Shown: in pieces, positions 1 through 41,861 of the stretch | Position numbering within the stretch: position 1 is the stretch's first letter | Layout: every line of letters begins with the position of its first letter | Source: Eledone cirrhosa | Lineage: Eukaryota | NCBI GenBank assembly: GCA_964016885.1 | Contig: OZ024745.1 | Coordinates: forward strand, 29,016,001-29,080,000 | Reading direction: 5' to 3' | DNA length: 64,000 nucleotides | Made by a program: the position numbers and the translations under genes | The notes under the pieces: model-generated | Databases searched by the model: none | Seen by the model: the letters and a program-made list of their open reading frames with translations, nothing else | What the model was told of the DNA's origin: nothing

Positions 1-8655
<8,655 letters not shown>

Positions 8656-8767
8656 ATAAGGTAAATATCTCTGTGAGTACTAAGTACCCATATATATATA
8701 CTTATATATAGGGTGTCTATAATATAATTGTTGTTCTATGGTACTAATTTGAGATACAGAAACTATA

Positions 8768-8940
8768 AAAATTGAGAGCAGCAGAACAAACAAACATTAA
8801 ACAATCCTTAATAATAAATTAAAAAATGATTTAAATATCTACCTGTTCAAATACCATTTGAACAGGTAAATATTTAAATCATTTTTTAATTTATTTAAAG
8901 GATTGGTTAATGTGTGTTTGTTCTGCTCATCTCAATTTTT
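8768..8940. repeat. Imperfect fold-back palindrome (~85-bp arms)
   Basis: aaaattgagagcagcagaacaaac...tacctgttcaaat-acc-atttgaacaggta...gtttgttctgctcatctcaatttt. Confidence 0.8.
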
Positions 8941-8988
8941 ATATATATGTACATCATCATCGTTTAACGTCTGATAATGATGTATAAA

Positions 8989-9042
<54 letters not shown>

Positions 9043-9201: not shown

Positions 9202-10101
9202 ATATATAAATATTTACACATATATAACCATAAATAAGTATGTGTTGAACAATGAAATCAAAAGGTGAAGATTAGTCTTTATATATATAAATATATACAT
9301 AAATATATTCATATATATATATGTATATATATTCATATATATATGTATATATACGTGTGTCTTACATACGTATATACATTCATATATTGCTATATATATA
9401 TATATATTAGAGAGAGAGAGATAGTTATTTTTCTATAAGTGGGTATATTGTTATAAGTAGAGAGCTAGATTAAAAATGTACATAACAGTGTGTATACATA
9501 ATTGCGTATAGAAATATGTGTATATAGTCGTGTAAGTGAACAACGACTGAAAAATCGAGGTGGGGGGCGATTCGGGTGAATGAGTCAGGGATGTGGAGGG
9601 AGCAGGAGGAGTAGAGAGATTGAAGATGCAATGTAGGGAGAGGAGGAGGAAACAATGTGATGGGATAGAGCCTGGGGGGGGGGGGGGTAGAAATTCTGAC
9701 GTGGTTGGAGAAGGGTGTGAGGGGAGGAGGAGGCAAAATATAAAAACAATAACAAACAATAATATACATAACTATAAATATGATACTGGGATACAATAAT
9801 AATGATATACATAATTATAAATATAACAAACATTAATAATAAACAATGATAATATATGTGTAACAATAAACAATGATAATGTACGTAACAATAAACATAA
9901 GAGGATAATATACGTAACAACAATAACTATAATAAGAAACATGATATACGTAACAGTAATATCCATAATAATGAACATATTAATACATATAACATCAATA
10001 CCAAAGAACAAATACGAAATATTACAGGAAAAAATTCATCCAGGTTTTCCGCTACCACCCAACCCTCTTCCTAGACGAAAAATCAATCATTATTGACTTA
10101 C

Positions 10102-10677
10102 CGCAGTGGTGTAAGGTGGACCAGACAGATCGATCTCATCACGAACAAGTTTGTCACGGACTATATGTTTTAACTGTATCTTGGGGTAAGTGAGCAAAGC
10201 AGACTTGCCATCTTCATAATCGTTGGGTAATCGTCGGGAATAATGGATGGGCTCATTTGTGGAGGAACAATCTCCTACGTTGTGATCGATATTTCCACCA
10301 CCAGTACCACTACCATTGCCACCACCCAGACACACCAGACCACCAGTTCTATGGTAGGTGCTGTCTGAATTGTTGGCAGTGGTGGTGCAAGCCACATGTC
10401 CATGTCCGTCAACTATACTAGCTGCTACATCAACATCATTATTGGGTTTTTCGAGGGTAAAATAGACGGCGGTACCACCCTGTTCGCGAAGAATCCTTAC
10501 AGCATCCAAGATTCGCTGACGATGTTCCTGTTTGAAGACTCCTATGGCGTCCAAGTCAGGATCACCGATCTGTTTGCAAATTTCCAGATCGTCGTAACCA
10601 TTATCCAAGAAGGCTTGTGTGTAGTGCACCAGATTCAAAGAACGAAGCCAGTCTGTTACTATGTTCCAGTCGGCCAT
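10102..10677 (-). CDS. SAMD5: SAM-domain protein exon, SAMD5/SASH1 (SKIP-like) family; probably the first coding exon
   Basis: The translation MADWNIVTDWLRSLNLVHYTQAFLDNGYDDLEICKQIGDPDLDAIGV...RQRILDAVRILREQ...YFTLE...YPKIQLKHIVRDKLVRDEIDLSGPPY matches both conserved blocks of vertebrate SAMD5 as recalled. ATG at 10677. Candidate acceptor ccttcag ends at 10681. Canonical donor GCG|GTAAGT at 10102/10101. In-frame TAA at 10090-10092 if unspliced. Confidence 0.88.
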
Positions 10678-11387
10678 ATCCTGAAGGCAACGAAGCACCA
10701 CTCACACATAAGACACAACACACTTCTGCATTCACTCATACACAACATATATAGACCAATATGTATGTATGGATATATAATAAAATATAATTATATATAT
10801 ATATATATATTATATATATATATATAGTAGATAGATAGCTAGGTATGTATATATATATATGTATATATATATATAGTGTGTGTGTAGGGAGAGAGAGAGA
10901 TATTACACAGAGAAAAGCAGATATATAAATATTTATATATATCTATTTAATTCTGTATATATATATATATATATATATACATATATAAACTGAAGAGGTT
11001 GTTTTATGTACGAGTGTACATAAAACATATATTAACAGAATGAGCACTCAATACATGTGAACATTATACGTAGAAATTTTTAAGGAGAGAGAAAAAGAAA
11101 ACATAAATGTTTATATATTTATGTGTATTTATACAATTATGAATACACGCACGCTTTTACGTGCGATCTCAAATTAACTCATTCATTCACCTCGGTGAAA
11201 ATACATATATACACAGAAGCTATATATATATATATTTAAATATATATATATAAATTGTGTTTATACAAGTATATAAGAGTATTTAACACACACACACATA
11301 CATATATGTAACAAATACCTATCTACCAATCTCTCTCTATAAATATATGTTTATATATATATTCATACGCATAGACAGAGAAACTGA

Positions 11388-19499: not shown

Positions 19500-20690
19500 A
19501 TAAAAAAAAAAAATTCCCAATAGGGAAGACTTCTGAGGGTCACACATGGAAAATAGCCACAAAAAGCCACGGTCACTCTGATCACTAGAGCTTCTTCTAG
19601 TTTTCCTACTCCAATCTACAGCCACATACTCAGAGCAGATGCATTCACGTGGGCCATGTTCACCCACCTTTCAATAAACTGCTTGGAAAATAGCACTTCC
19701 CTCTCCACCCGGATTTTCCTCAAGTGAAGCCTGAAAAAGTTAATCAGGTCTTCGCCGAAGATGAAAGTGCTTGTCTTCAGGCTCACCAACTTTTCCTGGT
19801 TAATTTTTGCTCCCGTTACTGCTTTGTACTCCCTCAGAGCAGTGCCGATCACCTCAATGTGTTTGGTGTTCGACATCACCATAGTGCGGTTGCCAGTATA
19901 AGCTGACACCGATCTCCCATATCCTGGTTTGTGCAGGATACCCCCTCAATATCTCCAATTTGTGTAGTAATGGCTTGAGAGTCAATACATACAAAAGGAA
20001 CAGGAGGGGACAACCTTGGAGGACCGAGTACATGATGTTGAACGGTTCTAACCATAGAGCAGACATTGCTGTGCATTTCAGTGATTCAGCCTCTGAAGAC
20101 AGGCCTAAAGCTGGCTGCCTTGAGGACTGCCACCAGATAGCAATGGTCAACTCTATTGAAAGCTTTCGATTGATTTAAGTTGATCAGGGCTCCACCCTTG
20201 CCAGTTTCTTTAGCCATCCTCTCTACGATATGTTGCATTAGGTGGAGGTTGTCGTGGATGGATCTGTTTGGGATGATACATGTTTGCTCCTCTCCTATTA
20301 GATCATTGATGACAAACGCCCACTTCATCACAAACAACTTGGCAAAAATTTTAAACTCTGTATTTAGCAGAGTTATGGGACTAAAATGATCAATATGGTC
20401 GCCGAATTACCTTCTGGGTCCAAGAAGATAGCCTATATCATGAGATCAAAGCCTTTCCAAAACAACATAATGGCTCCACCTCCAGATCCAGGATGGCTAG
20501 GAGATGCATATACCTCATAGCTGCTGAAAATGGGTGTGAAGGCCTGTACCTCGGAAATCCTGGTCTTGCTGATAGCCACCACATCTCTGTTCAGTGACCT
20601 GAGGTCGTTGAGCAAGTGACTCTACTTTCAAGATGACCCCACCCCACATGCACTTATACTGTCTATTCTGAGTAAGGCCATGTTAGATAA
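19500..20690 (-). mobile_element. Tx1/L1-clade LINE remnant (APE start plus RT, internally deleted and frameshifted)
   Basis: LIGEEQTCIIPNRSIHDNLHLM, LNQSKAFNRVDH, QGCPLLFLLYVLTLKPLL, YKAVTGAKIN; APE-like DVVAISKTR. Confidence 0.85.
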
Positions 20691-25722: not shown

Positions 25723-26451
25723 TAAAAAGCTAAGATAAATCTATCCATAAACCATACTGTTAAGCTTATCTCTAGTCATTACTCTAACAGTAACCCTTAA
25801 TTAAACTCTTAATCCTTAACCCTAACCCTAATGCTAAACCCTAGCTCTCACCCTAACCCTAACTCTAACCCTAGTTCTAATACTAACTGTACCCCTAGAC
25901 CAATCCTTAACCCTAACCCCAACCCTAAATACTAACCCTACAAGACAGCTGAAAGATTCAAAGGCTAACCAAGATACTCTCATGGAATGACCAAATGAGG
26001 AAAGAAACAATAAGGGTTGAAATTAATGCCTGCAAGATTTCACAGCCTCGCATCACTCACTCCTTTATAGTCAACCTATGAACTTTTCAGCCCATCCTCG
26101 TAACTCTAATACTTACAGTATTTGTAATACAAGGGAAATAACTCCTACAATTAATTTTTTTACGATTAATAACGGAAATTGAGAATGCAACTAAAATCAA
26201 TGAGAATTGATTAAAAAAATTTATAATACAAGAAAAATAACTCCCATAAAATAAAACTTTCATTTGTAATGCAAGGAGATAACTCCCACAAATAATATTA
26301 TACAATTTAGTGGGTGACAACTCCGGGATGATTGAGAAGAGATTTTAAAAAACATTATATATATAGTGTGTAACTCGCTATTTACGAGTATATGATATAT
26401 ATATATTTTTTGTTTCCGGGTATGTCAATATTTATTTATAAAACAAATATG

Positions 26452-26517
26452 TATTTTATCTGATGAAAGCGCACCATAATTTGCCTTGGTTGCCCTTGAA
26501 ATATGTATAATAAAATA
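26452..26517 (+). ncRNA. Type I hammerhead ribozyme motif (minimal, PLE/retrozyme-like; family A copy 1)
   Basis: Stem I tattttat/ataaaata (8 bp). CTGATGA at 26460. Stem II aagcgcacca...tggttgccctt. GAAA at 26498. Short near-palindromic stem III (tatgt). AUA cleavage triplet at 26507-26509. Confidence 0.75.
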
Positions 26518-26717
26518 AATATGGTTTTATAAATATAGTTTCCATTTATTAATATATTGTATATTTTTTACTCCACTAAATTGTTGAGTGCTTTATATCA
26601 GTTATAACATTTAAAAAATTAAATATAACCTCTGCATATATATATAATCATACACCCGTATATAGCGAGTTACACAGAGTGAAAGTGAATTGAGTTTATA
26701 CTGCCAACTAATAATTT

Positions 26718-27235
26718 TTTCAAGCTAAATGTATTATGTCATTTTAGATCTAAACAGAAATACATAAGAAGGTAGTTTACCAATGGTACATCGTTTTTTA
26801 AATTTTTTATAGATGTTTCTTTCCAGATCAATGTGTAATCATTTATTTTTCTTTCTAATGATATAATGTTTTGTTGTCCTAAGTTGAGCATAACAAACAT
26901 TGATTAAATATATTGTACTGAAACATATGTCAAATAAAGTAAATAATATATATAAATAAACATAAAAATGTTGCAGGTTTGGTGTTGTAATTTCTGGCCC
27001 TTTTACTCTGGAATAACCTATTAAGGAACGGTATGTGGTGTTGTGTTTGTAGTGAGGTTATTGGGGTGAAGTAATAGTTGGTTGTAGCTATTGTAGTTTC
27101 TGATGTATACTTTAGTTGTGATGTGTGGTTGTAGTTAAGATGTGGTTTTGGAGGTTCTATGATTGTTATAGTTGTGATCTGGTGGTTCAGTGTGTGTACG
27201 AGATGGAGAAGAAAAGAAGAAGGTTGAGCCATCAA
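26718..27235 (-). repeat. Inverted, diverged copy of the 3' half of dispersed repeat B (34690-35240)
   Basis: Reverse complement of ...ccgttccttaatagattattccagagtaaaagggccagaaattacaacaccaaacctgca... Confidence 0.85.
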
Positions 27236-27299
27236 AAATAGCATCAACCAAGTTAAAGTTGTTGAATCCAATGGGAGGAATGCAATTGGAGTCTTCATG

Positions 27300-27740
27300 A
27301 ATAGCTTCACGCATGGTGTCCTGGACCCACCATTCCCAAGGCCTCTTCTTTTCAACCAACCTGACTGCTGTTTGGAAAAGAGAAGGTGATATTATCCATA
27401 TTGCTGTGCATAATGTCTTCAGATGGCCGGCTGCAGATCATCTGCAAGTTCAACACCTCTGAACTGATCAAACAACTAAGCTTGGTGCAACTAGGGGTCG
27501 GCATGGCTGGTAAGTGTGAGGAGTCCACCCACGTCATTAAAGAGTGCTTCAATGACTCCCCACTCGAGCTGATGCCCAGAGATTCCAGGTATCCCATCAT
27601 TAACCTTGACATGAGAAACATCTTCAACTATCTACACTGCAGTCAGTTGCTCAAGGCTTACCTCAGCCATGCCCTGTCCACCTACTCATTGGACCACCTA
27701 TCATACTTGTCTCTAAGCTCCTCTCTGTGGATAAAGTCAT
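27300..27740 (+). mobile_element. Decayed CRE-clade (RLE-type) reverse transcriptase fragment
   Basis: LFFSTNLTAVWKREGDIIHIAVHNVFR and QLGVGMAGKCEESTHV...INLDMRNIFN resemble the CRE motifs IRPIAVG, QLGVG..GGCE and LD..NAFN. Confidence 0.65.
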
Positions 27741-28090
27741 ATCATCTACAACCTACATGTATTTAGGTTAAGATTTAGTTTAAAATTAGGTTTGGAGTTT
27801 GGGATTAGGTTTAGTGTTATGGTTAAAGTTAGGGTTAGGCTTAAGTTTAAGATTAGCATGAGGGTTAGGGTTAGGTTTAGATTTAGTGTTAGGGTTAATA
27901 TTAAAGGTTAGTGTTAGGTTTAGGCACTGTCATTCTGAATCTCCCTGAGAACTACGTAAAGGGTAATTGTGTCTATGGAATGCTTAGCCACTTGCACATA
28001 TATACATATATGTGTGTGTTTATATATATGTGTATGCTTGTGTGTGTTTATATATATATATGTGAGTGTCTATGGATCTCTATATATATA

Positions 28091-28165
28091 CAGGGTGTCC
28101 CAAAGAAATGTATACACACTGATTAGAATGCTGTTGAAGTGTGTATACATTTTTGAGACACCCTG
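28091..28165. mobile_element. 75-bp Tc1/mariner-type MITE
   Basis: TIRs cagggtgtcccaaagaaatgtatacacact / agtgtgtatacatttttgagacaccctg, flanked by TA. Confidence 0.8.
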
Positions 28166-28949
28166 TATATATATATGTGAGTGTGTATGTATATATATAT
28201 ATATATTATATATATATATATTATATATATATATATAATATATAACGAATCACACATCACTACTTAATAAATGTAATGATGACATAACAAATCGTCCTTT
28301 TTATTCATCATCATCATCATCATATAATGTCTATCTTCCATGCTAACATGGATTAGACAGGTTCGTCCCATTTGAGGCAATTTGGGTTGGGTGACTGTGT
28401 ATAGGACTGTTTCTGGCTGGTTTTCTACGGCTGGATGCCCTTCCTAACACTAACCACATTTACCGTGTGTGCTGGGTGCTTTTTGCTGTGTCTCCTACAT
28501 GACCATTTTACAGGAAATACTTACTCCACACATCATGTCCTAAACACAAGTTATATGATACATATGACTTAATATTCAGTCACCAAATTCGAGTTAGATA
28601 CAGTAATGGTGTATTCGATTCTTTGAAATCACTTGATAAAATTCCATTCAACAATACCACCAGCTCCCTCTCTCTCTTCCATTTTCCTTCTCTGTCTCCT
28701 TCTCTCTCTCTTTCAATATATTCTCTCACAACCACTATCTCTTTCAGTCTCTCTATTTATGAAAGTACCTGGAAAAATCCTGTATCTCGGGAACCCATGC
28801 TCTGATTTACACAAAACTTGTTTTATTCCATTTGTATTCCCATTTCAGGGGCAACTTCTTTTCAAAGTATTTTCCCATTATGCGCCATTTTGTCTGTATT
28901 AAATTGCAGACAAGCACACAACCACAGAGTTTCAGTAGTATATAGATAG

Positions 28950-30275
28950 ATGTTAGGGTTAGGTTTAGAAACTTAGTGTTAGAATTACAGATAGGTTTAG
29001 GTTTAATGTTAGTGGATAGTGTTAATTTTAAGGTTAGGTTTAGGGTTCTGTTTATAATTAGAACTTAGGCTAGTGTTATGTGTAGGGTTAGGATTATGGT
29101 GTAGGTTACATTTAGTGTTAGGGTTAAGATTAACGTTAGCTTAGGTTTAGAGTTAGGATTAGATTTAGGTTTATTTCGGGTTAGGTTTAGGGTTCAGATT
29201 TAGGATTTAATTTTTGCTTTAAGGTTTGGTTTACATTTAAGGTTAGGCTTAGTTTAAGATTAGGGTGAGGTTTGGGGTTAGCATTAGCCTTAGTTTTATT
29301 TTTATGTTTAAGGTTAGGCATATAAGGTTAGGATTCTGTTTAGGGCTAATGTTAGGTTAAGGCTTTTTGTTAGGGTGATGATTAGGGTTAGGTTTAGTAT
29401 AGGTGTTAGTTTTACGGTTAGGGAAAGTTTTAAGATTAGCCTTAGGGTTAGTAATAGGGTTTAGGTGAGAGTTAGTATTTAGGTTAGGATCAGGATTGAT
29501 ATTCAGTTAGCTTTATGGTTCAGGGTAATGTTATGGTTAAGTTTAGCCATAAGAATATGGTTAGGATTAGGTTTATTGTTAGTGTTTGGCTTAAAGTTAG
29601 GTTTTGATTTAAGGTTAATGTTAGGGATAGTGTTATGGTTTGGGTGTTTAATTTTAATGTAATGTTAATGCTTAGGTTATTTTTAGGTTAAGAACTAGGG
29701 CTAGTACTATATGTAGTATTAGAGTTAAGGTAAACTTTAGGCTTAGGGAATTAGGGTGAATTTTAAGGTTTAGTGTTAACTTCAGTTTTTTTTTTTTATA
29801 TCTGTTTAAATTTAGGGATAGTGTTAGATTCGGGTGTAGGTTAGCATTTCCAATAGGGTTAGGTTTAGGTTTAAGTTTCAGTTTATTGTTACTGTCAGAT
29901 TAGGGTTAGGGTTATGGAAAGTATAGTGTTATGGTAAACTTTAGAGTTATGGTTAGTTTTAGGATTGCAGTAATGGTTATGGTTAGGTTTGGGTTTTCAT
30001 TATGGTGAGGTTTAGGGAAAGCGATATAGTTAGTGTTACCATTAGGCTTAAGGTTAAGATTAGGTTTAGAGTTAGGGTTAGTTTCAGAGTTAGGCTTAGT
30101 TTTAGGGTTAACTTCAGTGTTAGCTTAGGGTTATAGTTAAATTTAGGATTAAGATCAGGGTTAGATTCAGGGTTAAGGTTATTGTTATGTTTAGGTTTAG
30201 AATTATTGCTAGGGTTAGTTTTAGTATTAAATCTAGGTTATGGGTATGTTTAGTATTAATGTTAGGGTTTGGTTA
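28950..30275 (+). repeat. Degenerate (TTAGGG)n-like hexamer array; smaller blocks at 24215-24460, 25790-25940 (CCCTAA strand) and 27765-27925
   Basis: Hexamer periodicity of ttaggg/ttaggt/ttaagg variants. Confidence 0.85.
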
Positions 30276-30790
30276 ATGTTATAGAGAAGTTCAATTATCT
30301 CGGGGCCGTGTTCATGAGTGATGGAAGGCAGGAGGCTAAATTAAGTGCAAGAATTGCAAAGGCTGGTGCAGTAATGCACCTGCTTCAGTATTCAGTGATC
30401 AGAAGAAGTGGGGGTAGGTGTAAAAGCCAAACACGTTATCTTCAATTCAGTTTTCTTGCCAATCCTTATCCAACCTGAATCTTGGGTAATGACTGAAAGA
30501 ATACAATCGTGAATACAAGCGGTTGAAATGGGATTCCTCCAAAGGGTCTTTGGAGTAATGTTACTCGATAAAGTGCATAACTCAGAGATCAGAGAATCAC
30601 TCTAGGTAGAGCTACTACTTCTCCGAATTAAGAGATCACAGCTCTGATACTATGGGTATGTGGTTAGAATATCTTAAGAAAGAATTGCTGGACAGATTTT
30701 ATGGGCAAAACCAACTGACAAGAGACCCAGAGCAAGATGGTTGGATAACATCCATGAGCTTGGCTGGTCTAGCTTGGGGATCCAGCCGGA

Positions 30791-33429
30791 TTATAATAAT
30801 AATAATGAAATTATTGTGTAAAGTGCTCAGGTGCACTACAACTCGTCAATATAGTACATAGAATAATACACAAATGCCAGGGAAGTACATGTTTGTATGT
30901 GTTAGCTGTAGTGTTGGCGGATCTCGGGAAGCATGGAGGCCTTAAAGGATGCAGCGTCTCGACAGCTAACAACTGATGCAGGTAGTTTGTTCCATGCTTC
31001 AGCAACTCTGAGCGTGAAAAAATGTTTCCGAAAGTCATGGGAACTGTGCTGTTTTCTTACTTTGTGGGCATGTCCACGTGTGTTAGACACATGGAAATCG
31101 AAAAGGCACTCAGGGTTGTTGTTGGCAACATGGTTAACAATTTTGTGGGTGTTTACCAAGTCAGTTGCCAGGCGTCGGAGCTTCAATGAATCCATGCCCA
31201 GGGAAGCAAGGCGATCAGAGTATGGTAGATGCCTGATGGAGGGTATTCGCTTGGTTGCACGTCTCTGAACAGTTTCCAGGCGGTCAATGTCCTGAGCAAG
31301 ATAGGGGTTCCAGACTGGTGATGCAAATTCTAAGTGTGGTCGCACCATAGCTGTATACAGCCTTAAATAGATATCTGGAGAGCGGCTGACAAAGGTCTTG
31401 CTGAGTGATGCTAAGACACCCTCGGCCCTCTTGACAATTTTAGAGACGTGCCTCGTCCAACGCAAATCGCTGCTGACCGTAATGCCCAGGTCACGTTCAC
31501 AGGAAGACTTCTTGATATTAGTGCTGTGGAGGGAATATGTGGACGCTGGGTTTTTACTCCCAAAATGCATGGTGGTGCACTTGTCCACAGCTAGCTTGAG
31601 TTGCCAGTCTGAGATCCACTGTTGCATTGTGTCCAGGTCAGACTGCAAGCAAGATCTATAGTGTTCAGGATCTGTCCTTTTTATCTCAAGGTACAGCTTG
31701 ATGTCGTCTGCGTACTTTAGTACTGTGGCATTCCTTAAGTTGGCATCTATGTCATTAATATATGCCACAAACAAAAGGGGGCCAAGAACAGATCCCTGAG
31801 GTACACCAGATGACATCTCATATGGTGAGGAATGCTGTCCCAGAACCGTGACTACCTCTCTTCGACTGAGAATGAAGGACTTCAACCAGTTAAAAAGATC
31901 ATCCTTCACACCCATTGCAGAGAGTTTTGCCATAAGCCTTTTGTGCGGCACAGAATTGAAGGCCTTCGCAAAGTCAAGGTAAACAACATCCACCCATGAG
32001 CCGCCATCAGTGATCCGGGTGATGTCCTCAAGAAACTCTATAAGTTGATCACAGCAGCTGGAGTTGGGGATAAATCCAAATTGCGAAGGCCGGATAAGAC
32101 TGTGAGAGCTCCAGAAGTTCCAAAGTGTTTCTCTGACACAGGATTCCATCAGTTTGGCGATGCAACTAGTAAGACTGACTGGACGATAGTTCACAGGTGA
32201 TGTGCGGTCACCCTTTTTGAACAGAGGAATTACACTGGCAGTTTTCCACTGTTCTGGAGTAGCACTGTTGTTCAGACAGAATTGGAAGAAGCGTGATAAC
32301 TGGTGTAGAAGGAAGTACCCACCACGTTTAAGAAGCAGGTACGTAACACCATCAAGACCAGGAGAGGCATGGTTGCGTTTATTTTTTAGGTGACGTCGCA
32401 GCATTGCAGGTGTAAATTCCATGGTTGTAATAGAGTCCGGTGTCATAGGTGGTGGAGATGGTACACTCTGGTCTTCAATGGTGAAAATGCCTGCATAGCA
32501 TTCAGCAATGAGCTCTGCGCATTCCTTGGGGTCGTCAGTAACCTGGCTTGTGTGGGGATTGCGAAGAGGACCAACTGGAGAGTGAGGCCTCTGCTTTGAG
32601 TGAACATACTTCCAGAACACCTTACTGTCAGGGCTGGTTGCTATGCGCTGCTCAAATTGAAGCACTGCCTTTTTTGTCACCTGTTTGAGGTGGTTGGACG
32701 ATCTATTTCGCCTCTTCCTATTAATGTCTGATTTGTGAAGTTTGTACTCACGTTCAGCATTGCGCCGTTCTTTTCTGGCAAGACGGACTGCTGCAGTCTC
32801 CCAAATTGCGCTTTTAGGATGTTTTTTCCGCTTACGTGGCACCGATGCTGCACATGCTGTCCATATTGAGCTCAGGATGTTCTGGAGTACAGTGTTGACA
32901 TCTCCAGAGTCATAGAACTCAAGCCAGTTTGGCCGTTGCAACTCGGTGCAGTAACAGTTCCAGTCTGCTCTATTCCAGTCAAAGTGAGCAGTTTGGAGAT
33001 GGTTGTGGTTCTTGTTACTGCCCATGAGGGATAGATTGGCAATGATCATAGCATGATCAGAGTCACCTAAAGGTTCCTCAGCAGTAACACTAATGACCGT
33101 TTCAGGAGTAGTGGTGAAGAGTAGGTCCAAAGTGTTGTCACCTCTTGTTGGGGAGGTGACCACCTGGGACCAACTCGAGTCCAGCACCAGCTCAAGGAAG
33201 TCATTTGCACTTGGCGGCCAACGAAAGGTCTCCCAGTCAATCTCAGGGTGATTGAAGTCACCTGCAATGAAAACATAAGTGGCTGTCTTCCTGGCAACAG
33301 CTCTGAGGATATCACAAAGTTGAGTGTCCTGATGGTAATTTGGGGGACGGTAAACGACTCCAAGTAGCAGTGTTGACATGGTCATACGTATATCGCAGAA
33401 AAAAACTTCCTGCTGTGATTGGTTCACAG
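30791..33429 (-). mobile_element. 5'-truncated CR1-clade LINE with (ATT)n tail
   Basis: Contains the intact ORF below plus a ~100-bp 3'UTR and a tail at 30791-30806; visibly more GC-rich than its flanks. Confidence 0.92.
30902..33427 (-). CDS. CR1-type ORF2 (C-terminal half of APE endonuclease plus reverse transcriptase), 841 uninterrupted codons, true start truncated
   Basis: APE motifs: GVVYRPP, AGDFNHPEIDW, PTRGDNTLDL, SDH. RT motifs: NYRPVSLTS, YLDFAKAFNSVPH, SGVPQGSVLGPLLF, YADD. CR1 C-terminal motifs: RPHLEFASPVWNP, VQRRATK, TRGH, RVAEAWNKLP. Confidence 0.95.
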   Translation of the reverse strand: MNQSQQEVFFCDIRMTMSTLLLGVVYRPPNYHQDTQLCDILRAVARKTATYVFIAGDFNHPEIDWETFRWPPSANDFLELVLDSSWSQVVTSPTRGDNTLDLLFTTTPETVISVTAEEPLGDSDHAMIIANLSLMGSNKNHNHLQTAHFDWNRADWNCYCTELQRPNWLEFYDSGDVNTVLQNILSSIWTACAASVPRKRKKHPKSAIWETAAVRLARKERRNAEREYKLHKSDINRKRRNRSSNHLKQVTKKAVLQFEQRIATSPDSKVFWKYVHSKQRPHSPVGPLRNPHTSQVTDDPKECAELIAECYAGIFTIEDQSVPSPPPMTPDSITTMEFTPAMLRRHLKNKRNHASPGLDGVTYLLLKRGGYFLLHQLSRFFQFCLNNSATPEQWKTASVIPLFKKGDRTSPVNYRPVSLTSCIAKLMESCVRETLWNFWSSHSLIRPSQFGFIPNSSCCDQLIEFLEDITRITDGGSWVDVVYLDFAKAFNSVPHKRLMAKLSAMGVKDDLFNWLKSFILSRREVVTVLGQHSSPYEMSSGVPQGSVLGPLLFVAYINDIDANLRNATVLKYADDIKLYLEIKRTDPEHYRSCLQSDLDTMQQWISDWQLKLAVDKCTTMHFGSKNPASTYSLHSTNIKKSSCERDLGITVSSDLRWTRHVSKIVKRAEGVLASLSKTFVSRSPDIYLRLYTAMVRPHLEFASPVWNPYLAQDIDRLETVQRRATKRIPSIRHLPYSDRLASLGMDSLKLRRLATDLVNTHKIVNHVANNNPECLFDFHVSNTRGHAHKVRKQHSSHDFRKHFFTLRVAEAWNKLPASVVSCRDAASFKASMLPEIRQHYS

Positions 33430-33739
33430 TAGTTGGAGACAGTCACTTCTGAGAAGACCTGTTGGAAGGAGTGTTTGAGGCTTCTGCCCCTAGGACCCCC
33501 TCAGGAATAAGTGGTTGAAGAAGACGGTTTGGTTAAGCAATAGAGTTTGGGTTCAGTGTTCGGTTTAAGGTTAAAAGGGTGGAATGCAGTCATTATTAAT
33601 TTTACAGAAAGAGAGAAAGCTGAGTTTTCCAATTTCTTATTTTTTTAATAGATACAGAATTGAAATTGAAAAATTTTACAATTAAGTTTTTAACTATCAA
33701 ATACAGTATGTGTAAATTCTTTTTGTATGTGAGTGTGTG

Positions 33740-35240
33740 ACAATTGAATGAGGTGTTGCGTTTGTATACACACGTGCTTTATAAATGCGTCTGTATATGT
33801 TTTGTAAATGCGTGTGTTATAACATGAATGTGAAGCGGGAAGCGTTAATAGAAGAATGTGTATAAGAAGTGGTAATAGAGGAAGACAGACACACAACAAC
33901 GTTAATGAAAATGAACCAATCAGAACACGCCATTCAATCACTGCTGTTGACATCTGCTCAATAGTAAGACGTTTTACTAGCACCAATCAACGATCTCTAT
34001 TGTATCACATGATCAATGACCACCATTGCGCGCTTTTACACTCCCTCTCTCTGTTTATATATATGTATATTTCTATTGCTCCCATATCTTTCTCTTAGTC
34101 TTTCACTTCCTATATCACTTTTTTTGCCTTTTCCTCTTCTAATCTTTCTCTTTCCTCAATGTTGTTCCCTCTTTATTTTCCCCTCCTTCCTTATTTTAAC
34201 TCATACTACTACTCTACCTCCTCCCCCAATTGTTAGCCATGTAATTCCGACATGTCTGGTTTGTTTTGTTTTCTTTTCATAGATTCATTACACCACACAC
34301 ATTCTTCTGTTATAGTTAAGTACTAGATTACTATTACATACTCTAGTACGCTCCCACCCCCTCCACTCACCTATAATTTAACTCTCTATTGATCTATATT
34401 GGTGGAATTATCACTTCTAATATCACAGGAACGGGGCACTCCAAACCAACGTCCATAGAAGTCTGTATAGGCAAACGTTCCATCGTAACTATTATTGTAA
34501 ACTAATACTACTTATTTTTCTAACATTGCACTCTTTACTACGAACTATTATACATGTTTCCTCTTTCACGGAGATAGAAAGAGACAGAGTCAGAACACTC
34601 CACAACGGATATGACTCGTCACACCGCCATAACAAAAACATCAATAGCAGCAAGGTTATAAACAACATAACCCATACAGCAACATTACTACAATTGATGG
34701 TTCAATCATCTTTTCTTCTCCATCTCGTATACACACACCGAAACACCACCAGATCACAACTACAACAATCATAGAACCACCACAACACCACATCTTAACT
34801 ACAACCACATATCACAACTAAAGTACACACCAGAAACTTACCATAGCTACAACCAACACCTCACTACACCCCAATAACCTCACTACAAACACAACACCAC
34901 ATGCCGTTCCTTAATAGATTATTCCAGAGTAAAAGGGCCAGAAATTACAACACCAAACCTGCAATTCCGGAGCCAAAAAAGCCGTAAGTTTGACATTCTT
35001 ATGTTTGTTGATATATATCATTTACTTTTTTTTACATATGTTTCAGTGCATTATATTTAATTAATGTTTGTTATGCTCGACTTAGGACAACAAAACACCA
35101 CCAGAAACACGAATAAAAGATTACACATTGATCTGGAAAGAAGCATCCATAAAAAACAAAAAAAAACGATGTACTGTTTATAAACTACCTTCTTAAGTAT
35201 TTCTGTTTAGATCTAAAATGACATAACACATTTAGCTTGA
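33740..35240 (+). repeat. Dispersed repeat B, copy 1 (possibly the 5'/pLTR region of a Penelope-like element)
   Basis: Direct repeat of 42440-43795 with identical ORF text (HSLLRTIIHVSS...). Two CCAAT boxes. The family assignment is inference. Confidence 0.8.
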
Positions 35241-35261
35241 AGCTATTATTACTTGGATTGT

Positions 35262-35398
35262 TACGTCCCTTTATGATCTGAGTTCAAATCCCGCCGAGGT
35301 TAACTTTGCCTTTCATCCTTACGAGGTCGATAAAATAAAGTACCAGTAATGTACTGAGTAATTGCTGGCCTTGTGCCTAAAATAGAAACAATTATTAC
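35262..35398 (+). mobile_element. Meta-like SINE, partial
   Basis: Same B-box, core and tail as 13641-13835. Confidence 0.8.
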
Positions 35399-35541
35399 TT
35401 GGATTGTTTCATCCGAAGCAAACCATCAGGAAAGCACTGATGATTGATTTCCTTCGAAACCATTTCTATATTAAATTTGTTTACACTCTACTAATGTATT
35501 GAGTACCTTACTTACTACTGTGGCTACCCCCGATCGAACCC

Positions 35542-35599
<58 letters not shown>

Positions 35600-35656
35600 C
35601 GTATCATGTTTTTGCAACATTAAAAGAATATTTGGAATCTGGCCTTCTTTTTTCAT

Positions 35657-35750
35657 TATATATATTGCTGAGTAGCAACGATGAGTGATATTACATATAT
35701 TTTATGTGAGTGTATCTATATATGTTTATTAATCTGTGAATCTCTCTCTC

Positions 35751-35782
<32 letters not shown>

Positions 35783-35862
35783 TTCACAGATTAATAAACA
35801 TATATATATACACACACAAAATATATGTAATATCACTCATCGTTGCTATTCAGCAATATATA
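35657..35862. repeat. Fold-back palindrome (~95-bp arms) centred on (TA)n
   Basis: attgctgagtagcaacgatgagtgatattacatatatttt... / ...aaaatatatgtaatatcactcatcgttgctattcagcaat. Confidence 0.9.
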
Positions 35863-35986
35863 TGAAGTATTTCCGTCAGAAAGGTACAGGAAAAAAGAGT
35901 GCTCTATGTAGGCTACAGAGCTTATTAGTTATGTAATAAACAACATAAGATAATTATTTCATTTAATAAATACACCATGTTTTTTA

Positions 35987-36047
35987 TTCATTCTGACGAC
36001 CGAAGACAGACACAACATGTGTCTTCAAGAAACCACTGGTAAATGAA
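35987..36047 (+). ncRNA. Type I hammerhead ribozyme motif (separate family)
   Basis: Stem I ttcatt/aatgaa. CTGACGA at 35993. Stem II gaagaca/tgtcttc (closing two pairs mismatched). GAAA at 36029. Stem III CC-act-G(G). GUA triplet at 36039-36041. Confidence 0.7.
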
Positions 36048-36297
36048 ATAATTATCTTATGTTGTTTATTACATAACTAATATATAAAGGGGTCCCCAGT
36101 CACTGAAGGGGTCACGGAGTGTGTGACGAGGGAACTTTGACAATATATGAACGGTCGTCTGGTTGTGGGGCCAACCAACCAACCTGAAATTTATAAATTT
36201 ATAAATTCCTAAATTTATAAATTTAATTTATAATAAATTGAAATGAAAACAACTGGTGCATGTGTTTCTTATTGGCAACATGACCCTCCCAAAGTAT

Positions 36298-36357
<60 letters not shown>

Positions 36358-37559
36358 CATTTATTAATGTTCCACCCAATGAAGGTAGGATTGACTTATA
36401 ATAATTTTAGTAATTGATGTGCACAGTAAAATACATTGCAAAGTAAAATACATTGTTTCTGAGGATAGACGGTAGAATGTTTGTTTTATTTTTGCGATGC
36501 TTCTGGTATGGAGTTGCATAACTGCCATCGATTGGTCTGCATTTTGACAATTTTGCTTTCTGGAACGATCTTAAAACAGCGGATTAATTAACTATTGCAC
36601 CTTTTCCTTATTCCTTCATTGTTTAACATTACATATATTTATATATACACACATATATCTATATACACACATATATATATATATCTAACGTGTATTATCC
36701 ATGCTTGCATGGGTTAGATCGGTTATGTTATGTGGCTAGCCAGGTCAGGTGATCACGTCTTGCTCATACAGATGTTTTCGGCCTGTTTTTCATTTTACGG
36801 CTGAATTTAACCAGATTACAGCATGTACTGGGCGCATTTTCCATGGTACCACGACTATCCCTTTCTACGATGGACAGGGTACTTTTTATCGTAGTTCTAG
36901 AATGACCACCTAACATGGTGTACTGTATGCTTTTTTGTCGAGGTACCAGCACGATCACACTACAGAATAGACTAGGTGCTTTATATCATGGCACCAACGC
37001 TGTGGGAAAGTAGGTGTCGAGCGTGTCCGCTCTTCCATGCATGCATGGGTTGAACTGGAAAGGCATGTAAAAGGGGGTGGTGTCATCGTCACCGTTAGAC
37101 ATCAATTGCCCTTTGGGTCAGACAGGTTGCGACCTAGCAAAATAGGCCACGCCAAGTTCATACATTGTTTCTGTTTTGGCATGGCCACCCCACCGAGTGC
37201 CCTTCCTAACCCTAACCAAATATTTTGTTGTTGTACAAGATGGGCATATATGTGTATGGGTTGGGCTGGGTTAAGAGAGGGGATCAGGGAGGGAATGTTG
37301 ACAGAAAGAAATGAGTGGAAGAGGTCTACAGTGTGTACATAGATAATAAGGGTGTCCTGAGTATTAAATTGGGGAACGTGTTTGAAGAAGAGTGGTGCAG
37401 GCTGTCCTCTTTATGTTTGTTTCATCCTGTATGTGTGGGAAGGCAGGTCTTCTGCAGTATGACTTATTGCCAGAAAACTCAATGCTGCACCAATTTCTTT
37501 GAGAGTCTTAATTGCATGGGATCATACGCACACGCACATGATGGCTGCAACACAATTTC

Positions 37560-37800
37560 GAGTAATGTTATCGCTTGATACTTAAGCTTGAGCAGCACTG
37601 ATGTGGCTTTTTAGTCCTGCTAGGGACTTGCACAGACGTTGCAACAATGGGGGCCCTCTCGCAGTAGGTGTCATGGTCCTGTTTTGGTGCACTTTCAAAT
37701 GACGTTTCAGTCCACCAACTGAGGCACACTCTGATTATGTTAGTCTCCTCCCTGAAAGGCTTGCGGGGTAATCGTGTCAGTTTTACGACGAAGCCTGTAG
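37560..37800 (-). mobile_element. RTE/BovB-like LINE C-terminal remnant; part duplicated at 39461-39560
   Basis: Frameshifted RLPRKPF..GGLKRHLK..PHC..RLCKSLAGLKSH (C-terminal zinc-finger motif). Confidence 0.55.
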
Positions 37801-37884
37801 GTCTGCTGCTGGACTCAAGCGGCACATGAGAGTGCATAAGGAGCAAATTATATTCAGGACTATCTGGGATATATATATATAGAG

Positions 37885-38270
37885 AGAGAAAATTGAGGTT
37901 GGTAATGGCACATGGAATATATAAGAGACAGAATACTTTTTTGTGAAAAAACATATAATTTTATAAGGTAAGGAAATAATAAAGGGTATAAAAAATGACC
38001 GGTTTCGATGGGTCTGCAAAAGCCATCTTTTCAAATGTTGATTAATATTAAGAAAAATTAATAATACGAAGAGTTAAAATTTGAGATTTGAAAATTCAAT
38101 TCTTAATATTAATCAACATTTGAAAAGATGGCTTTTGCAGACCCATCGAAACCGGTCATTTTTTATACCCCTTATTATTTCCTTACCTTATAAAATTATA
38201 TGTTTTTTCACAAAAAAAGTATTCTGTCTCTTATATATTCCATGTGCCATTACCAACCTCAATTTTCTCT
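37885..38270. repeat. Inverted repeat (~170-bp near-identical arms, ~45-bp spacer) carrying a degenerate hammerhead-like motif
   Basis: Arms 37885-38054 and 38100-38270; motif ttgaaaa-GATGG...CCATC-GAAA-CCGGTC. Confidence 0.88.
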
Positions 38271-38301
38271 ATAACCTTCGTTTTGTGTAGAAAATTACAC
38301 T

Positions 38302-38354
<53 letters not shown>

Positions 38355-38590
38355 AAAATTTTATTTAAGATTGTTGGGTTACAACGAGTAAATATTTTAT
38401 AACTGATATAAAAGCACTCAACAGTTTCTGGAGTAGGTTTACGATATTAAACAAATGGAAACTATATTTATAAAACCATATTTATTTCGTTATATATATT
38501 TCTGGGATATCATATTAAAAATCTTTTTAAATGGAAGTTGCATTATTACAAGGTATGTCACTAATTATTTATAAAACAGCTTATGTATTG

Positions 38591-38656
38591 TGTTTTGTCT
38601 GAGGAAGGCATACCATATTTTTAATATGATATCCCAGAAATATATATAACGAAATA
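38591..38656 (+). ncRNA. Type I hammerhead ribozyme motif (family A copy 2)
   Basis: Stem I tgttttgt/acgaaata. CTGAGGA at 38599. Long imperfect stem II. GAAA at 38637, then tatat-AUA. Confidence 0.65.
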
Positions 38657-39060
38657 AATATGGTTTTATAAATATAGTTTCCATTTGTTTAATATCGTAT
38701 ATATATATATATATATATGTTAGTTTCAGAAGATCCCGTTAAGGGTGAAAGCAGCGATTCTTTGCTTAAACTTTAATCTGTTATTTTAATATATATATAT
38801 ATATATATATATTATGTATATGTATTATATATATTATGTCATTTATTTTGTCTGACCTGTTTAGCTTGACTTGTTTTTTGGCTTAGGTGGTTAATGCCTT
38901 CTTGTCAGTTTGTATGGCGTTTATAACCTATGTTTATAGCTCTGGTTTTTTAGCCCATGGAGCGCTTGCCAGCATGACTCTGAATTTGCGTTACGTTCCG
39001 CTTTTTCTACCTGCCGAAATGCGATTCTCTGTGAATTTATATATATATATATATAGTAAT

Positions 39061-39358
39061 AATTGTTTCTACGTTAGGCACAAGGCCAGCAAGTACCCAG
39101 TGCATTACTGATACTTTATTTTATCGACCCCGTAAGGATGAAAGGCAAAGTCAACCTCAGCGGGATTTGAACTCAGATCGTAAAGGGACGTAACTATGCT
39201 GGAAAGCACGGCGTCCGACCCTCTACCGATACTGCCAATCCACCGCCCTTATATATATTGTTTCTACTTTTGGCACAAGGCCAGCAATTATTCCAGTGTA
39301 TTACTGGTACTTTATTTTATCGACCCTGTAAGGATGAAAAGCAAAGTTAACCTCGGCA
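39061..39358 (-). mobile_element. Two tandem Meta-like SINEs (near full length 39061-39250; partial 39257-39358)
   Basis: Reverse complement of the 13641 SINE. Confidence 0.85.
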
Positions 39359-39631
39359 TATATAGTAATAATAATAATAAATTTGAAGACTAAAATCCAA
39401 AGAGGGCTCGATAAGGATAAATATATATCAAATATATAAGAACCATAGAGCAAATATTTATTGGTGCACTTTCAAATGACGTTTCAGTCCACCAACTGAG
39501 CACACTCTGATTATGTTAGTCTCCTCCCTGAAAGGCTTGCGGGGTAATCGTGTCAGTTTTGTTATTTTAATATATATATATATATGTGTGTGTAAAAAAA
39601 AATATATATATATATATACACACATACATAC

Positions 39632-39689
<58 letters not shown>

Positions 39690-39704
39690 TTCTTTCTTTT
39701 TTTC

Positions 39705-40245
39705 TTTTCCCACTTATTCCTGAGAGGGTCATGGGGGCAGAGTCCTCAAACACTTCTTCCAGCAGGTCCTGTCAGAAGCAACCGTCTCAAACAGATCTGG
39801 CTGGATCCTCAAGCAAGACTAGCCAAGCTTATAGATGTAATCCAACCATCCTGCTCGGGGTCTACCCCTGGGCCTCATGTCGGTTGGTTTTGCCTGTAAA
39901 ATGTCCAGAGATTCTTTCTTGAAGCATTCTAGCCACATGCCCATAGTATTGGAGCTATGATCTCTCAATTCAGAGAAATAGCAGCTCTACCTAGAGTGAC
40001 TCTCTGATCTCCAAGCCACACACTCTATCAAGTAACGTTACTTCAAAGACCCTTCGGAGGAACCCCATTTCGGTCACTTGTATTCTTTCGGTCATTATCC
40101 TTACCCAAGATTCATGACTATAGGTAAGGGTTGGCATGAATGCCGAATTGAAGATTAAAGATAGCAAGTTTACCTCTCTTTTCTGATTACTGAATGCTGA
40201 ATCTGGCACATTACTGCACCAGCTCCTGTAATTCTTGCACTTAAT
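39705..40245 (-). mobile_element. RTE family-1 3' fragment
   Basis: PTLTYSHESWV..TERIQVTEMGFLRRVFEVTLLDRV. Confidence 0.85.
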
Positions 40246-40254
40246 ATATATATG

Positions 40255-40572
40255 ACCAAGCATAGACGAGTTGAGAAAGAAACTGGGTATAAGAGGGATA
40301 AGTTGCGGTGTGCAGGAGAGAAGGCTGAGATGGTATGGATATGCGATGCGCATGGAGGATGACCGCTGGGTAAAGAAGTGCCAAGAAATCCCAGTAGAAG
40401 GAGGATACAGTAGAAGTAAACCACCAAAAACATGGGTGGAGGTGGTGAGAGCAGACCTCAGATCGCTGAAACTCACCGAGGAGATGACGAAGGACCGTGA
40501 TAAGTGGAGAGATGCTGTGCTGAATAGGACCCGTCCAACCCTTGCAAACAGGGAAAAGCGGACGTAAAATGA
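40255..40572 (+). mobile_element. RTE family-2 3' end
   Basis: LGIRGISCGVQERRLRWYGYAMRMEDDRWVKKC...PPKTWVEVVRADL...DRDKWR. Confidence 0.88.
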
Positions 40573-40769
40573 TGTGTGTGTGTATGTATATATATATATA
40601 TAATTTGTACAGATTAAAGTTTAAGCAAAGAATTTCAGCTTTCCCCCTATACGGGATCTTCTGAAATCGTTTCAGACCCCATATAGGGTGCAAGCAGAAA
40701 ATCTTTGCTTAAACTTTAATCTGTACTAATAATATTTGCTGTACAGGTTTATATATATATATATATATA

Positions 40770-40907
40770 TAGGAAAAGGTATGACCCCGACTGCAGAGCT
40801 CAAGCCATTTCGACGGCCATTTCTGGACTGCAAAAATCGGTCTAGCGAGTCCAGAAATAGCCGTCGAAACGGCTTGAGCTCTGCCATCAGGGTCATACCT
40901 TTTCCTA
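40770..40907. repeat. GC-richer 138-nt hairpin (60-bp arms, 18-nt loop)
   Basis: taggaaaaggtatgaccc...ttctggact / agtccagaa...gggtcataccttttccta. Confidence 0.9.
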
Positions 40908-40984
40908 TTACCCACTCTACTACCCTAAGTATTGAGTACTCTGGTGCGTTATGGTCCATCTGGTTCCTTACCACAATTCCTTCG

Positions 40985-41022
<38 letters not shown>

Positions 41023-41028
41023 GAAAAA

Positions 41029-41075
<47 letters not shown>

Positions 41076-41151
41076 AAAGTTCTATTTAAAATTGTTGGGA
41101 TACAACAAGTAAATATTTTTATAACTGATATAAAGCACTCGACAAGTATTT

Positions 41152-41241
41152 GACTTTGCCTTTCATCCTTACGAGGTCGATAAAATAAAGTACCAGTAAT
41201 GCACTGGGTAATTGCTGGCCTTGTGCCTAAAGTAGAAACAA
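41152..41241 (+). mobile_element. 5'-truncated Meta-like SINE inserted into hammerhead family-A element copy 3
   Basis: TSD acaagtattt at 41142-41151 and 41238-41247. Confidence 0.8.
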
Positions 41242-41299
41242 GTATTTGGAGTAGATATACGATATTAATAATTGGAAACTATATTTATAAAACCATATT

Positions 41300-41364
41300 T
41301 ATTTCATTATACATATTTCAGGGATACCAAATTAAGTTATGGTATGCCTTCATCAGACAAAATA
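41300..41364 (-). ncRNA. Type I hammerhead ribozyme motif (family A copy 3)
   Basis: Minus strand: tattttgt-CTGATGA-aggcatacca-taacttaatt-tggtatccct-GAAA-tatgt-ATA-atgaaata. Stem II pairs 9 of 10 positions; stem I is 8 bp including 2 G-U. Confidence 0.78.
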
Positions 41365-41461
41365 CAATATATAACAGTTTTACAAATAAGCTTTGACGTA
41401 CCCTATTAAAATGCAACCATTATTTTTGGAAGCCATATATATATATATACACACACACACA

Positions 41462-41502
<41 letters not shown>

Positions 41503-41559
41503 CCTTATTGACTCCTCTTTGGATTTTGGTCTTTGTATTCATTATTACTATATATAAAA

Positions 41560-41817
41560 GTTTCTACTTTTGGCACAAGGCCAGCAAATACCCAGTACAT
41601 TACTGGTACTTTATTTTATCGACCCCGTAAGGATGAAAGGCAAAGTTAACCTCGGCGGGATTTGAACTCAGATCGCAAAGAGTTACCCCCCTTTACGATC
41701 TGAGTTCAAATCCCGCCGAAGTTAACTTTGCCTTTCATCCTTACGGGGTCGATAAAATAAAGTACCAGTAATGTACTGAGTAATTGCTGGCCTTGTGCCA
41801 AAAGTAGAAACAATTAT

Positions 41818-41818
<1 letters not shown>
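41560..41818. mobile_element. Head-to-head inverted pair of 5'-truncated Meta-like SINEs
   Basis: 41560-41677 (-) and 41690-41818 (+), near-complementary, short spacer. Confidence 0.88.

Positions 41819-41861
<43 letters not shown>

Follow-up and report, generated by a model that had tools for sequence, protein, structure and literature searches.

A predicted hammerhead ribozyme element in TA repeats of Eledone cirrhosa, probably inserted by a Penelope-type mechanism

The stretch of DNA analysed here (the window) comprises 64,000 nucleotides of the Eledone cirrhosa genome, contig OZ024745.1 of assembly GCA_964016885.1, positions 29,016,001 to 29,080,000. It contains three copies of an element that carries a type I hammerhead ribozyme motif. 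The copies are alike at 175/214, 177/205 and 197/224 positions in pairwise comparison (82-88%), and every end of all three is flanked by TA. Judged by sequence and fold, the three loci are a real, well-supported hammerhead element. The build of one copy, in which two arms are joined head to head with a tail on one side only, points to insertion by the machinery of Penelope-like elements (PLEs).

Copy 1 (26407..26636, + strand) consists of a single, 5'-truncated arm, lies between (TA)n tracts at 26395-26406 and 26636-26646, and ends in TGCA 127 nt past the predicted cut. Its hammerhead (26452..26517, +) is built from a stem I of 8 bp, the core CUGAUGA at 26460-66, stem II at 26467-97, GAAA at 26498-501, a self-complementary 8-mer at 26501-08 and the cleavage triplet AUA at 26507-09. 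The copy is located within the TA centre of an inverted repeat of ~32 bp (26368-26400 / 26636-26676), perhaps an older tail-to-tail pair. Copy 3 (41072..41434, - strand) is also a single arm with (TA)n on both sides. Its hammerhead spans 41300..41364 (-), with CUGAUGA from 41356 and a predicted cut after 41308, and its end, TGCA, lies 140 nt past the cut when a later insertion is discounted. This insertion (41142..41248, +) is made up of 85 nt from a common repeat (41153-41237), presumably SINE-like (short interspersed nuclear element), between two copies of an 11-bp duplication. No terminal inverted repeats are present in copies 1 and 3.

Copy 2 consists of two arms joined 5' to 5', with each outer end at a TA run. 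The long arm (38351..38522, -) begins in the loop of stem II, crosses the cut site and continues for 140 nt to TGCA(TA)n, and the short arm (38523..38699, +) contains the whole hammerhead and ends in ATCGTA at (TA)n 51 nt past the cut. The short-arm hammerhead (38591..38656, +) has the core CUGAGGA at 38599-605, an A at 10.1 (38606) opposite an A at 11.1 (38636), and a predicted cut after 38648. The two arms are identical at 83/83 positions (38617-38699 on the + strand against 38522-38440 on the other). What remains of the long arm is a one-sided tail of 89 nt (38351..38439, -) that lies between the two 3' end sites and is also present in copies 1 and 3. The long 3' end is used at all three loci, and the short end at one locus and in five reads of a public sequencing run (X13, described below). 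The cut site is crossed in all four arms. The original prediction had each copy end in TGCA(TA)n, which holds for copies 1 and 3 and for the antisense arm of copy 2 with only the 3' half of the ribozyme; the sense arm, which carries the ribozyme in full, stops 89 nt short of this, at ATCGTA(TA)n. It had also described copy 2 as an antisense piece plus a sense piece, and both are present, but their layout as an inverted copy with a tail, the footprint of PLEs, was missed.

The hammerhead was recovered with a relaxed type I descriptor run on both strands of the window, which gave four matches in total, three of them with a stem I of at least 7 bp; the match outside this family is an unrelated motif at 35993. 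The cores at the three loci start at 26460 (+), 38599 (+) and 41356 (-), and the cuts predicted originally, after 26509, 38648 and 41308 (-), were reproduced exactly. In 100 block-wise dinucleotide shuffles of the window, a mean of 0.09 matches was obtained and none had a stem I of at least 7 bp. The core CUGANGA, GAAA and NUH are present in type I order in all three copies, and in the three-copy alignment the core and triplet columns are invariant (12/12), compared with 26/79 columns that vary. Pairing in the stems is kept in 55/57 cells across the copies (96.5%), against 36-51% in slid controls. Two-sided compensations are found at 4/19 pairs, one in stem I and three in stem II. The observed level of pairing and compensation was equalled in 11/500 shuffles, and this covariation, which comes from three related sequences, is read as support and carries no P value. 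The compensations are predicted to record selection on the parent lineages and not on the three window copies. An expected A-U, G-C and G-U at the second pair of stem I was borne out by the alignment. The companion claim, that stem II changes in sequence yet still pairs, agrees with the three stem II compensations and breaks down at the A/A closing pair of copy 2. Both unpaired cells belong to copy 2, namely this A opposite A and a C-A mismatch, and a strict descriptor recovers 2/3 copies, with copy 2 failing.

Stem II is long, with 9 bp around a C-C mismatch, and the 10.1-11.1 pair is A-U in 2/3 copies and A-A in 1/3. Within one molecule stem III amounts to 2 bp, and the 8-mer from A15.1 to U16.1 is self-complementary, with 8/8 self-pairs in all three copies. 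Because stem III would have 2 bp alone and 8 bp between two molecules, the ribozyme is predicted to need a partner copy or help from a protein. In foldings of all copies the monomer minimum is 6-12 kcal/mol below the hammerhead fold, which is what a motif dependent on a dimer or on protein would be expected to show. The cleavage triplet AUA has been ranked with GUA and CUC, behind AUC and GUC, in the available text of PMC8879150, and its cleavage is described as far slower than that of GUC in PMC3138052. The triplet, singled out originally as uncommon, is therefore of middling-to-low rate, but it is permitted by the NUH rule and is a detail that implies no new chemistry. Such a triplet fits a slow, conditional ribozyme. 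In the part available of a recent study of retrozymes, which are hammerhead-bearing elements that encode no protein, no cleavage was seen for 8/9 of the dimers tested (Li, Clavereau and Pollet 2026, bioRxiv 10.64898/2026.07.22.740005), and therefore activity of the window family is not to be assumed.

Covariance models for the hammerhead, which had been proposed as a check, gave no support. At E<=10, with copies 1 and 3 scanned separately, no Rfam hammerhead family was among the 4 matches of the former or the 2 matches of the latter, and no hammerhead is among the 150 of 409 matches listed for the whole window. This negative result is not counted as a refutation, because the description of PLE-type variants relied on custom descriptors (Cervera and de la Pena 2014, PMC4209133, as far as its available sections go).

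Further features are shared by the copies. A splice-donor-like G/GTAYGT (a G, then GTAYGT) is located at 38552..38558 (+) in copy 2, at 26419-26425 (+) in copy 1 and also in copy 3; in each copy the GTAYGT precedes the core by 40-46 nt. A block of 32 nt just 3' of the cut (38652..38683, +, in copy 2) is identical in all three copies, has the deepest coverage in the public runs, and is a candidate recognition signal. Foldings of the tail and downstream regions were no better than shuffles in 5/5 cases (z -1.12 to +0.49), and a conserved hairpin with a UCAGU loop in the tail is only a lead. The possibility that the 5' end is coding was rejected, as the frame that shares one TAA in all three copies (by eye) spans ~16 codons; many replacements, and single-base deletions in some contigs, are further evidence against it.

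The family is also observed in public sequencing data. Part of copy 2 is present in nine public runs under five organism labels, none recorded as RNA, and four of these runs (X1, X4, X5 and X13, under three organism labels) were aligned to copy 2. X1 and X13 are under one organism label, and X1 may be the source individual. The alignments comprised 3224 contigs from X1, 70 from X4 and 4 from X5, and 31370/12467656 reads from X13. From the core to the 5' end, summed depth drops 139-fold in X1 and 225-fold in X4, and in the tail it is 4.5-fold (X1) and 25-fold (X4) below the peak just 3' of the cut, a profile that fits heavy truncation at the 5' side and a short end that is often used. Summed depth is not copy number; as a rough inference, judged against junction contigs of depth 8-44, the family would have thousands to tens of thousands of copies. 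Variation falls at sites where the ribozyme tolerates it: N7, which is U or G in the window copies and A in 9% of X1 depth and 82% of X13 depth; the centre of stem III (A/G, both self-complementary); and 11.1, which is U or C, with C making up 21% (X1) and 16% (X13) of depth. Upstream of the 5' end of copy 2 the same letters are found in X1 and X5, and therefore the element is longer than any copy in the window (at least ~287 nt). Of these upstream letters, 21 have no match in the window, tail included, at <=5 mismatches. Both orientations are linked at other points by 11 X1 joints and several X13 joints, and therefore the two-armed form is general in the family. In the five X13 reads mentioned above, the short end is reused on both sides of a TA run. 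A metagenome scan with the 32-nt block gave 0 matches. With bare hammerhead words, 118 loci were found in 36/64 parts of the metagenome set; one passes a loose stem filter, none has both window-like stems and none gave a BLAST match to the window family, so that these loci are taken as chance.

The layout of copy 2 has been described for PLEs. According to the available text of two studies of endonuclease-bearing PLEs (Craig et al. 2021, PMC8557442; Arkhipova et al. 2013, PMC3846280), these elements insert with an inverted truncated copy, a one-sided tail of 30-40 bp and a microsatellite target. In copy 2, a 5'-truncated inverted copy adjoins at the 5' end, and similar junctions are observed in the public runs. 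On this comparison, copy 2 appears to be a PLE insertion footprint, matching point by point except for the length of the tail. Biochemical work is reported for Poseidon of Anolis (Frangieh et al. 2024, PMC11167929, in the portion available). The purified protein nicks AT-rich DNA on both strands and extends each of them, reverse transcription starts at two internal sites, and the spacing between these sites equals the genomic tail. By analogy with that work, the enzyme would nick both strands in AT-rich DNA, each 3'-OH would prime at one of two internal sites of the RNA, and both cDNAs would stop early and then be joined head to head; the single-arm copies 1 and 3 would be one-sided outcomes. 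Self-priming on an antisense template has been described as another route to head-to-head repeats (PMC3846280, available text).

Insertion of the PLE type, whichever RNA was the parent, is therefore considered highly probable. The best explanation as a whole, held with somewhat more confidence than doubt, is that 5'-truncated ends of a hammerhead RNA were written into nicked TA repeats by a PLE reverse transcriptase (RT) with a GIY-YIG endonuclease, and that this RNA was most likely the pseudo-LTR (long terminal repeat) of a PLE with its coding body elsewhere in the genome. A pseudo-LTR is preferred as parent because PLE-type hammerheads are mostly single motifs from truncated PLEs (PMC4209133, as available), because the 5' side keeps extending and the copies are old and diverse, and, as a weak point, because the donor-like GTAYGT is kept upstream; introns in pseudo-LTRs have been described as a PLE trait (available parts of PMC8557442 and PMC4209133). 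The original prediction of a TA-favouring retrozyme or solo pseudo-LTR holds insofar as this is a hammerhead retroelement of the PLE and retrozyme world in TA microsatellites, and falls short in that the window has no tandem retrozyme layout and that, for copy 2, the template was likely an RNA left uncut.

Several observations weigh against the pseudo-LTR explanation or limit what can be drawn from the data. Among 209 open reading frames (ORFs) of at least 55 aa in the window, outside positions 1-9000 and low-complexity frames, none matched GIY-YIG in Pfam, and the two with RVT_1 matches are a long interspersed nuclear element (LINE) with an apurinic/apyrimidinic (AP) endonuclease and a fragment; a search for an adjacent ORF with RT and GIY-YIG, suggested beforehand, thus found none in this set. 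Two typical features of PLE minimal hammerheads, an additional base after A9 and a G10.1-C11.1 pair, are absent from the three-copy alignment, and stem I has 8 bp, compared with 4-5 bp in those hammerheads. The tail of copy 2 is 89 nt long, whereas the one-sided tail of endonuclease-positive (EN+) PLEs is described as 30-40. The fall in depth towards the 5' end is confounded by divergence of subfamilies from the reference. Also, X13 is a restriction-site library in which reads start at a CATG-centred site inside stem II, which biases proportions.

More can be suggested about the template of copy 2. Its A at 11.1 accounts for at most 0-7% of depth, and its C in stem I for at most 0-8% (by arm and run), and both rare variants are found in both arms. 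Because these two variants are shared, the arms are most simply read as products of a single event that copied one RNA, or RNA of one source locus. As one of the variants breaks the closing pair of stem II, the template RNA would have been uncut. In a constrained monomer hammerhead fold copy 2 scores worst, at +0.3 compared with -4.8 and -6.3 kcal/mol, and since in addition A11.1 faces A10.1, the ribozyme of the template was probably weak according to this modelling. In Poseidon, ribozyme mutants are reported to still insert, and the ribozyme cuts only with protein present (PMC11167929, available text). On the other side, the identity of the arms could stem from gene conversion after insertion, and copies 1 and 3, which have intact folds, also cross the cut site, as a ligated circle would equally allow. 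In addition, 19/22 arm ends in the 11 X1 joints lie 3-25 nt downstream of the cut, so that many other copies could have been made from cut RNA; this indication is weak either way, as in 7/11 joint rows the letters between the two sides are unknown and alignment is biased by the conserved block. The fullest scenario is considered rather improbable: a Penelope-type enzyme, priming at each end of the cut TA repeat, would have used two internal starts on one ribozyme-dead RNA, separated by 89 nt, with cleavage and circularisation dispensable in vivo, the arms of competent members stopping just 3' of the cut, the 32-nt block acting as recognition signal and the ribozyme lying in a retained intron.

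A different parent, which we regard as possible and less likely, would be a retrozyme without a protein, with a unit of ~290-470 nt that is transcribed from tandem arrays, cleaved by ribozymes acting in pairs, closed into a circle and copied in trans by the enzyme of a PLE, the loci in the window being copies shorter than the unit. Retrozyme families descend from pseudo-LTRs and are often represented by many dispersed monomers (bioRxiv 10.64898/2026.07.22.740005, in the part available), a self-complementary stem III is well suited to cleavage as a dimer (Cervera and de la Pena 2020, PMC7229834, likewise), no ORF lies downstream of the ribozyme, and a ligated circle, too, would be read across the cut site. 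However, tandem copies, which were to be looked for according to the original prediction, are absent from the window, as is any head-to-tail unit, and among the joints listed (15/17) none links the TGCA end to the 5' side, although the TGCA end is the edge of the reference and is poorly tested. The copies are 12-18% apart, unlike a young array, and the template of copy 2 has a damaged stem II. Because no match to the 21 upstream letters exists in the window, tail included, the unit must exceed ~287 nt; the known length of at least ~287 nt, with a 5' boundary beyond the reach of the data, weighs neither for nor against the closed non-coding unit of 150-450 nt expected of a retrozyme.

A ribozyme-bearing SINE-like repeat moved by LINE machinery, with inversion through twin priming or fold-back, is considered very improbable. 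An intact-looking LINE ORF is present in the window, an open frame of 846 aa at 30905-33442 (-) with AP-endonuclease and RT domains, and the insertion inside copy 3 is of LINE type with a target duplication; an RT fragment is also found at 20089-20406. Against this route, the copies have no poly(A) tail. Twin priming inverts non-overlapping parts, whereas the two arms of copy 2 have a stretch of 83 identical bases in common, and each of them stops at a TA run at a fixed site. The one-sided tail is moreover described as PLE-specific (available text of PMC11167929 and PMC8557442). A TA-targeting miniature inverted-repeat transposable element, or a chance hairpin with an accidental hammerhead, would suit the AT-rich sequence, the TA flanks, the inverted arms and the lack of an Rfam hammerhead match on copies 1 and 3, but this reading is largely refuted by covariation (four two-sided compensations around an invariant core) and is extremely improbable, given 0/100 shuffles with a comparable motif, no metagenome word match among 118 with both such stems, and copies 1 and 3 without terminal inverted repeats.

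The surroundings of the three copies are rich in similar structures. Four unrelated palindromes nearby share the build of copy 2, with a one-sided tail ending at TA (arms 169/170, 56/61, 54/62 and 43/43 alike; tails of 35, 77, 14 and ~150 nt), and the other four palindromes examined are one tail-to-tail pair, one head-to-head SINE-like pair and two that are unclassifiable. The palindrome at 37885-38305, with two arms identical at 169/170 positions and a one-sided tail of 35 nt (a textbook length for PLEs), shares a TA run with copy 2, and no hammerhead was found inside it. Two more two-armed insertions at 40598-40990, with tails of 14 and 77 nt to TA runs, adjoin the 3' TA run of copy 3. A second, unrelated hammerhead family is located at 35773-36082, with its core at 35993, a predicted cut after 36041 and an imperfect closing of stem II. 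This element is also two-armed (35923-35965 / 36040-36082, 43/43), the 5' end of its long arm lies <=2 nt from the predicted cut, and its tail, ~150 nt long, stops at a TA run that is shared tail to tail with another copy at 35658-35750. The head-to-head SINE-like pair (41549-41826, 128/132 identical) has TA-rich sequence at both outer ends and may share the two-armed route of insertion. A probable host exon with a SAM domain lies at 10093-10701 (-), and the elements may be intronic to that gene or placed upstream of it. Positions 1-9000 of the window are ~9 kb of degenerate TA/TAC microsatellite with 7-9% GC.

Compared with known systems, the family resembles the hammerheads of metazoan PLE pseudo-LTRs, as presented in the available sections of PMC4209133, in its type I fold, its long helix II, a tiny palindromic helix III for which a dimer is predicted to be necessary, and covarying subfamilies; there, too, most motifs are dispersed singly, and some lie 100-700 bp from one another on opposite strands. 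In contrast to those hammerheads, the window family has A-U and not G-C at 10.1-11.1, no extra base after A9, an 8-bp stem I and an AUA triplet, and it is known here without a linked ORF. With EN+ PLEs (PMC8557442, PMC3846280) and Poseidon (PMC11167929) it shares 5' truncation, an adjacent inverted truncated copy, a one-sided tail, an AT-rich or (TA)n target and 3' ends downstream of the ribozyme, as far as the text available for these papers goes; unlike them, it has no ORF starting in or after the ribozyme, and no clade is assigned. Naiads have the same (TA)n bias, but are described without canonical hammerheads in the text available. Metazoan non-LTR retrozymes (PMC7229834; bioRxiv 10.64898/2026.07.22.740005, both as available in part) are similar in their low GC, type I hammerhead and length of a few hundred bases, in having no ORF seen and in possibly dispersed monomers, whereas the window family lacks a tandem unit in the window and is known here from DNA alone. 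In the literature searched, no description of the window family was found, although repeat databases (Repbase/Dfam), PLE consensus files (PMC8557442) and alignments (PMC4209133) may hold it; a squid genome paper, in its available part, counts 235 hammerheads only. The kind of element is thus well described, and the family itself appears to be undescribed in this literature.

As an object, the family is one more of a described class. With regard to the role of hammerheads in PLEs, ribozyme mutants still insert in vitro (PMC11167929, available text). An abundant family with functional-looking and broken ribozymes, in which two-armed insertions record one template twice, permits a test from genomes only: whether the state of the ribozyme predicts where the cDNA stops.

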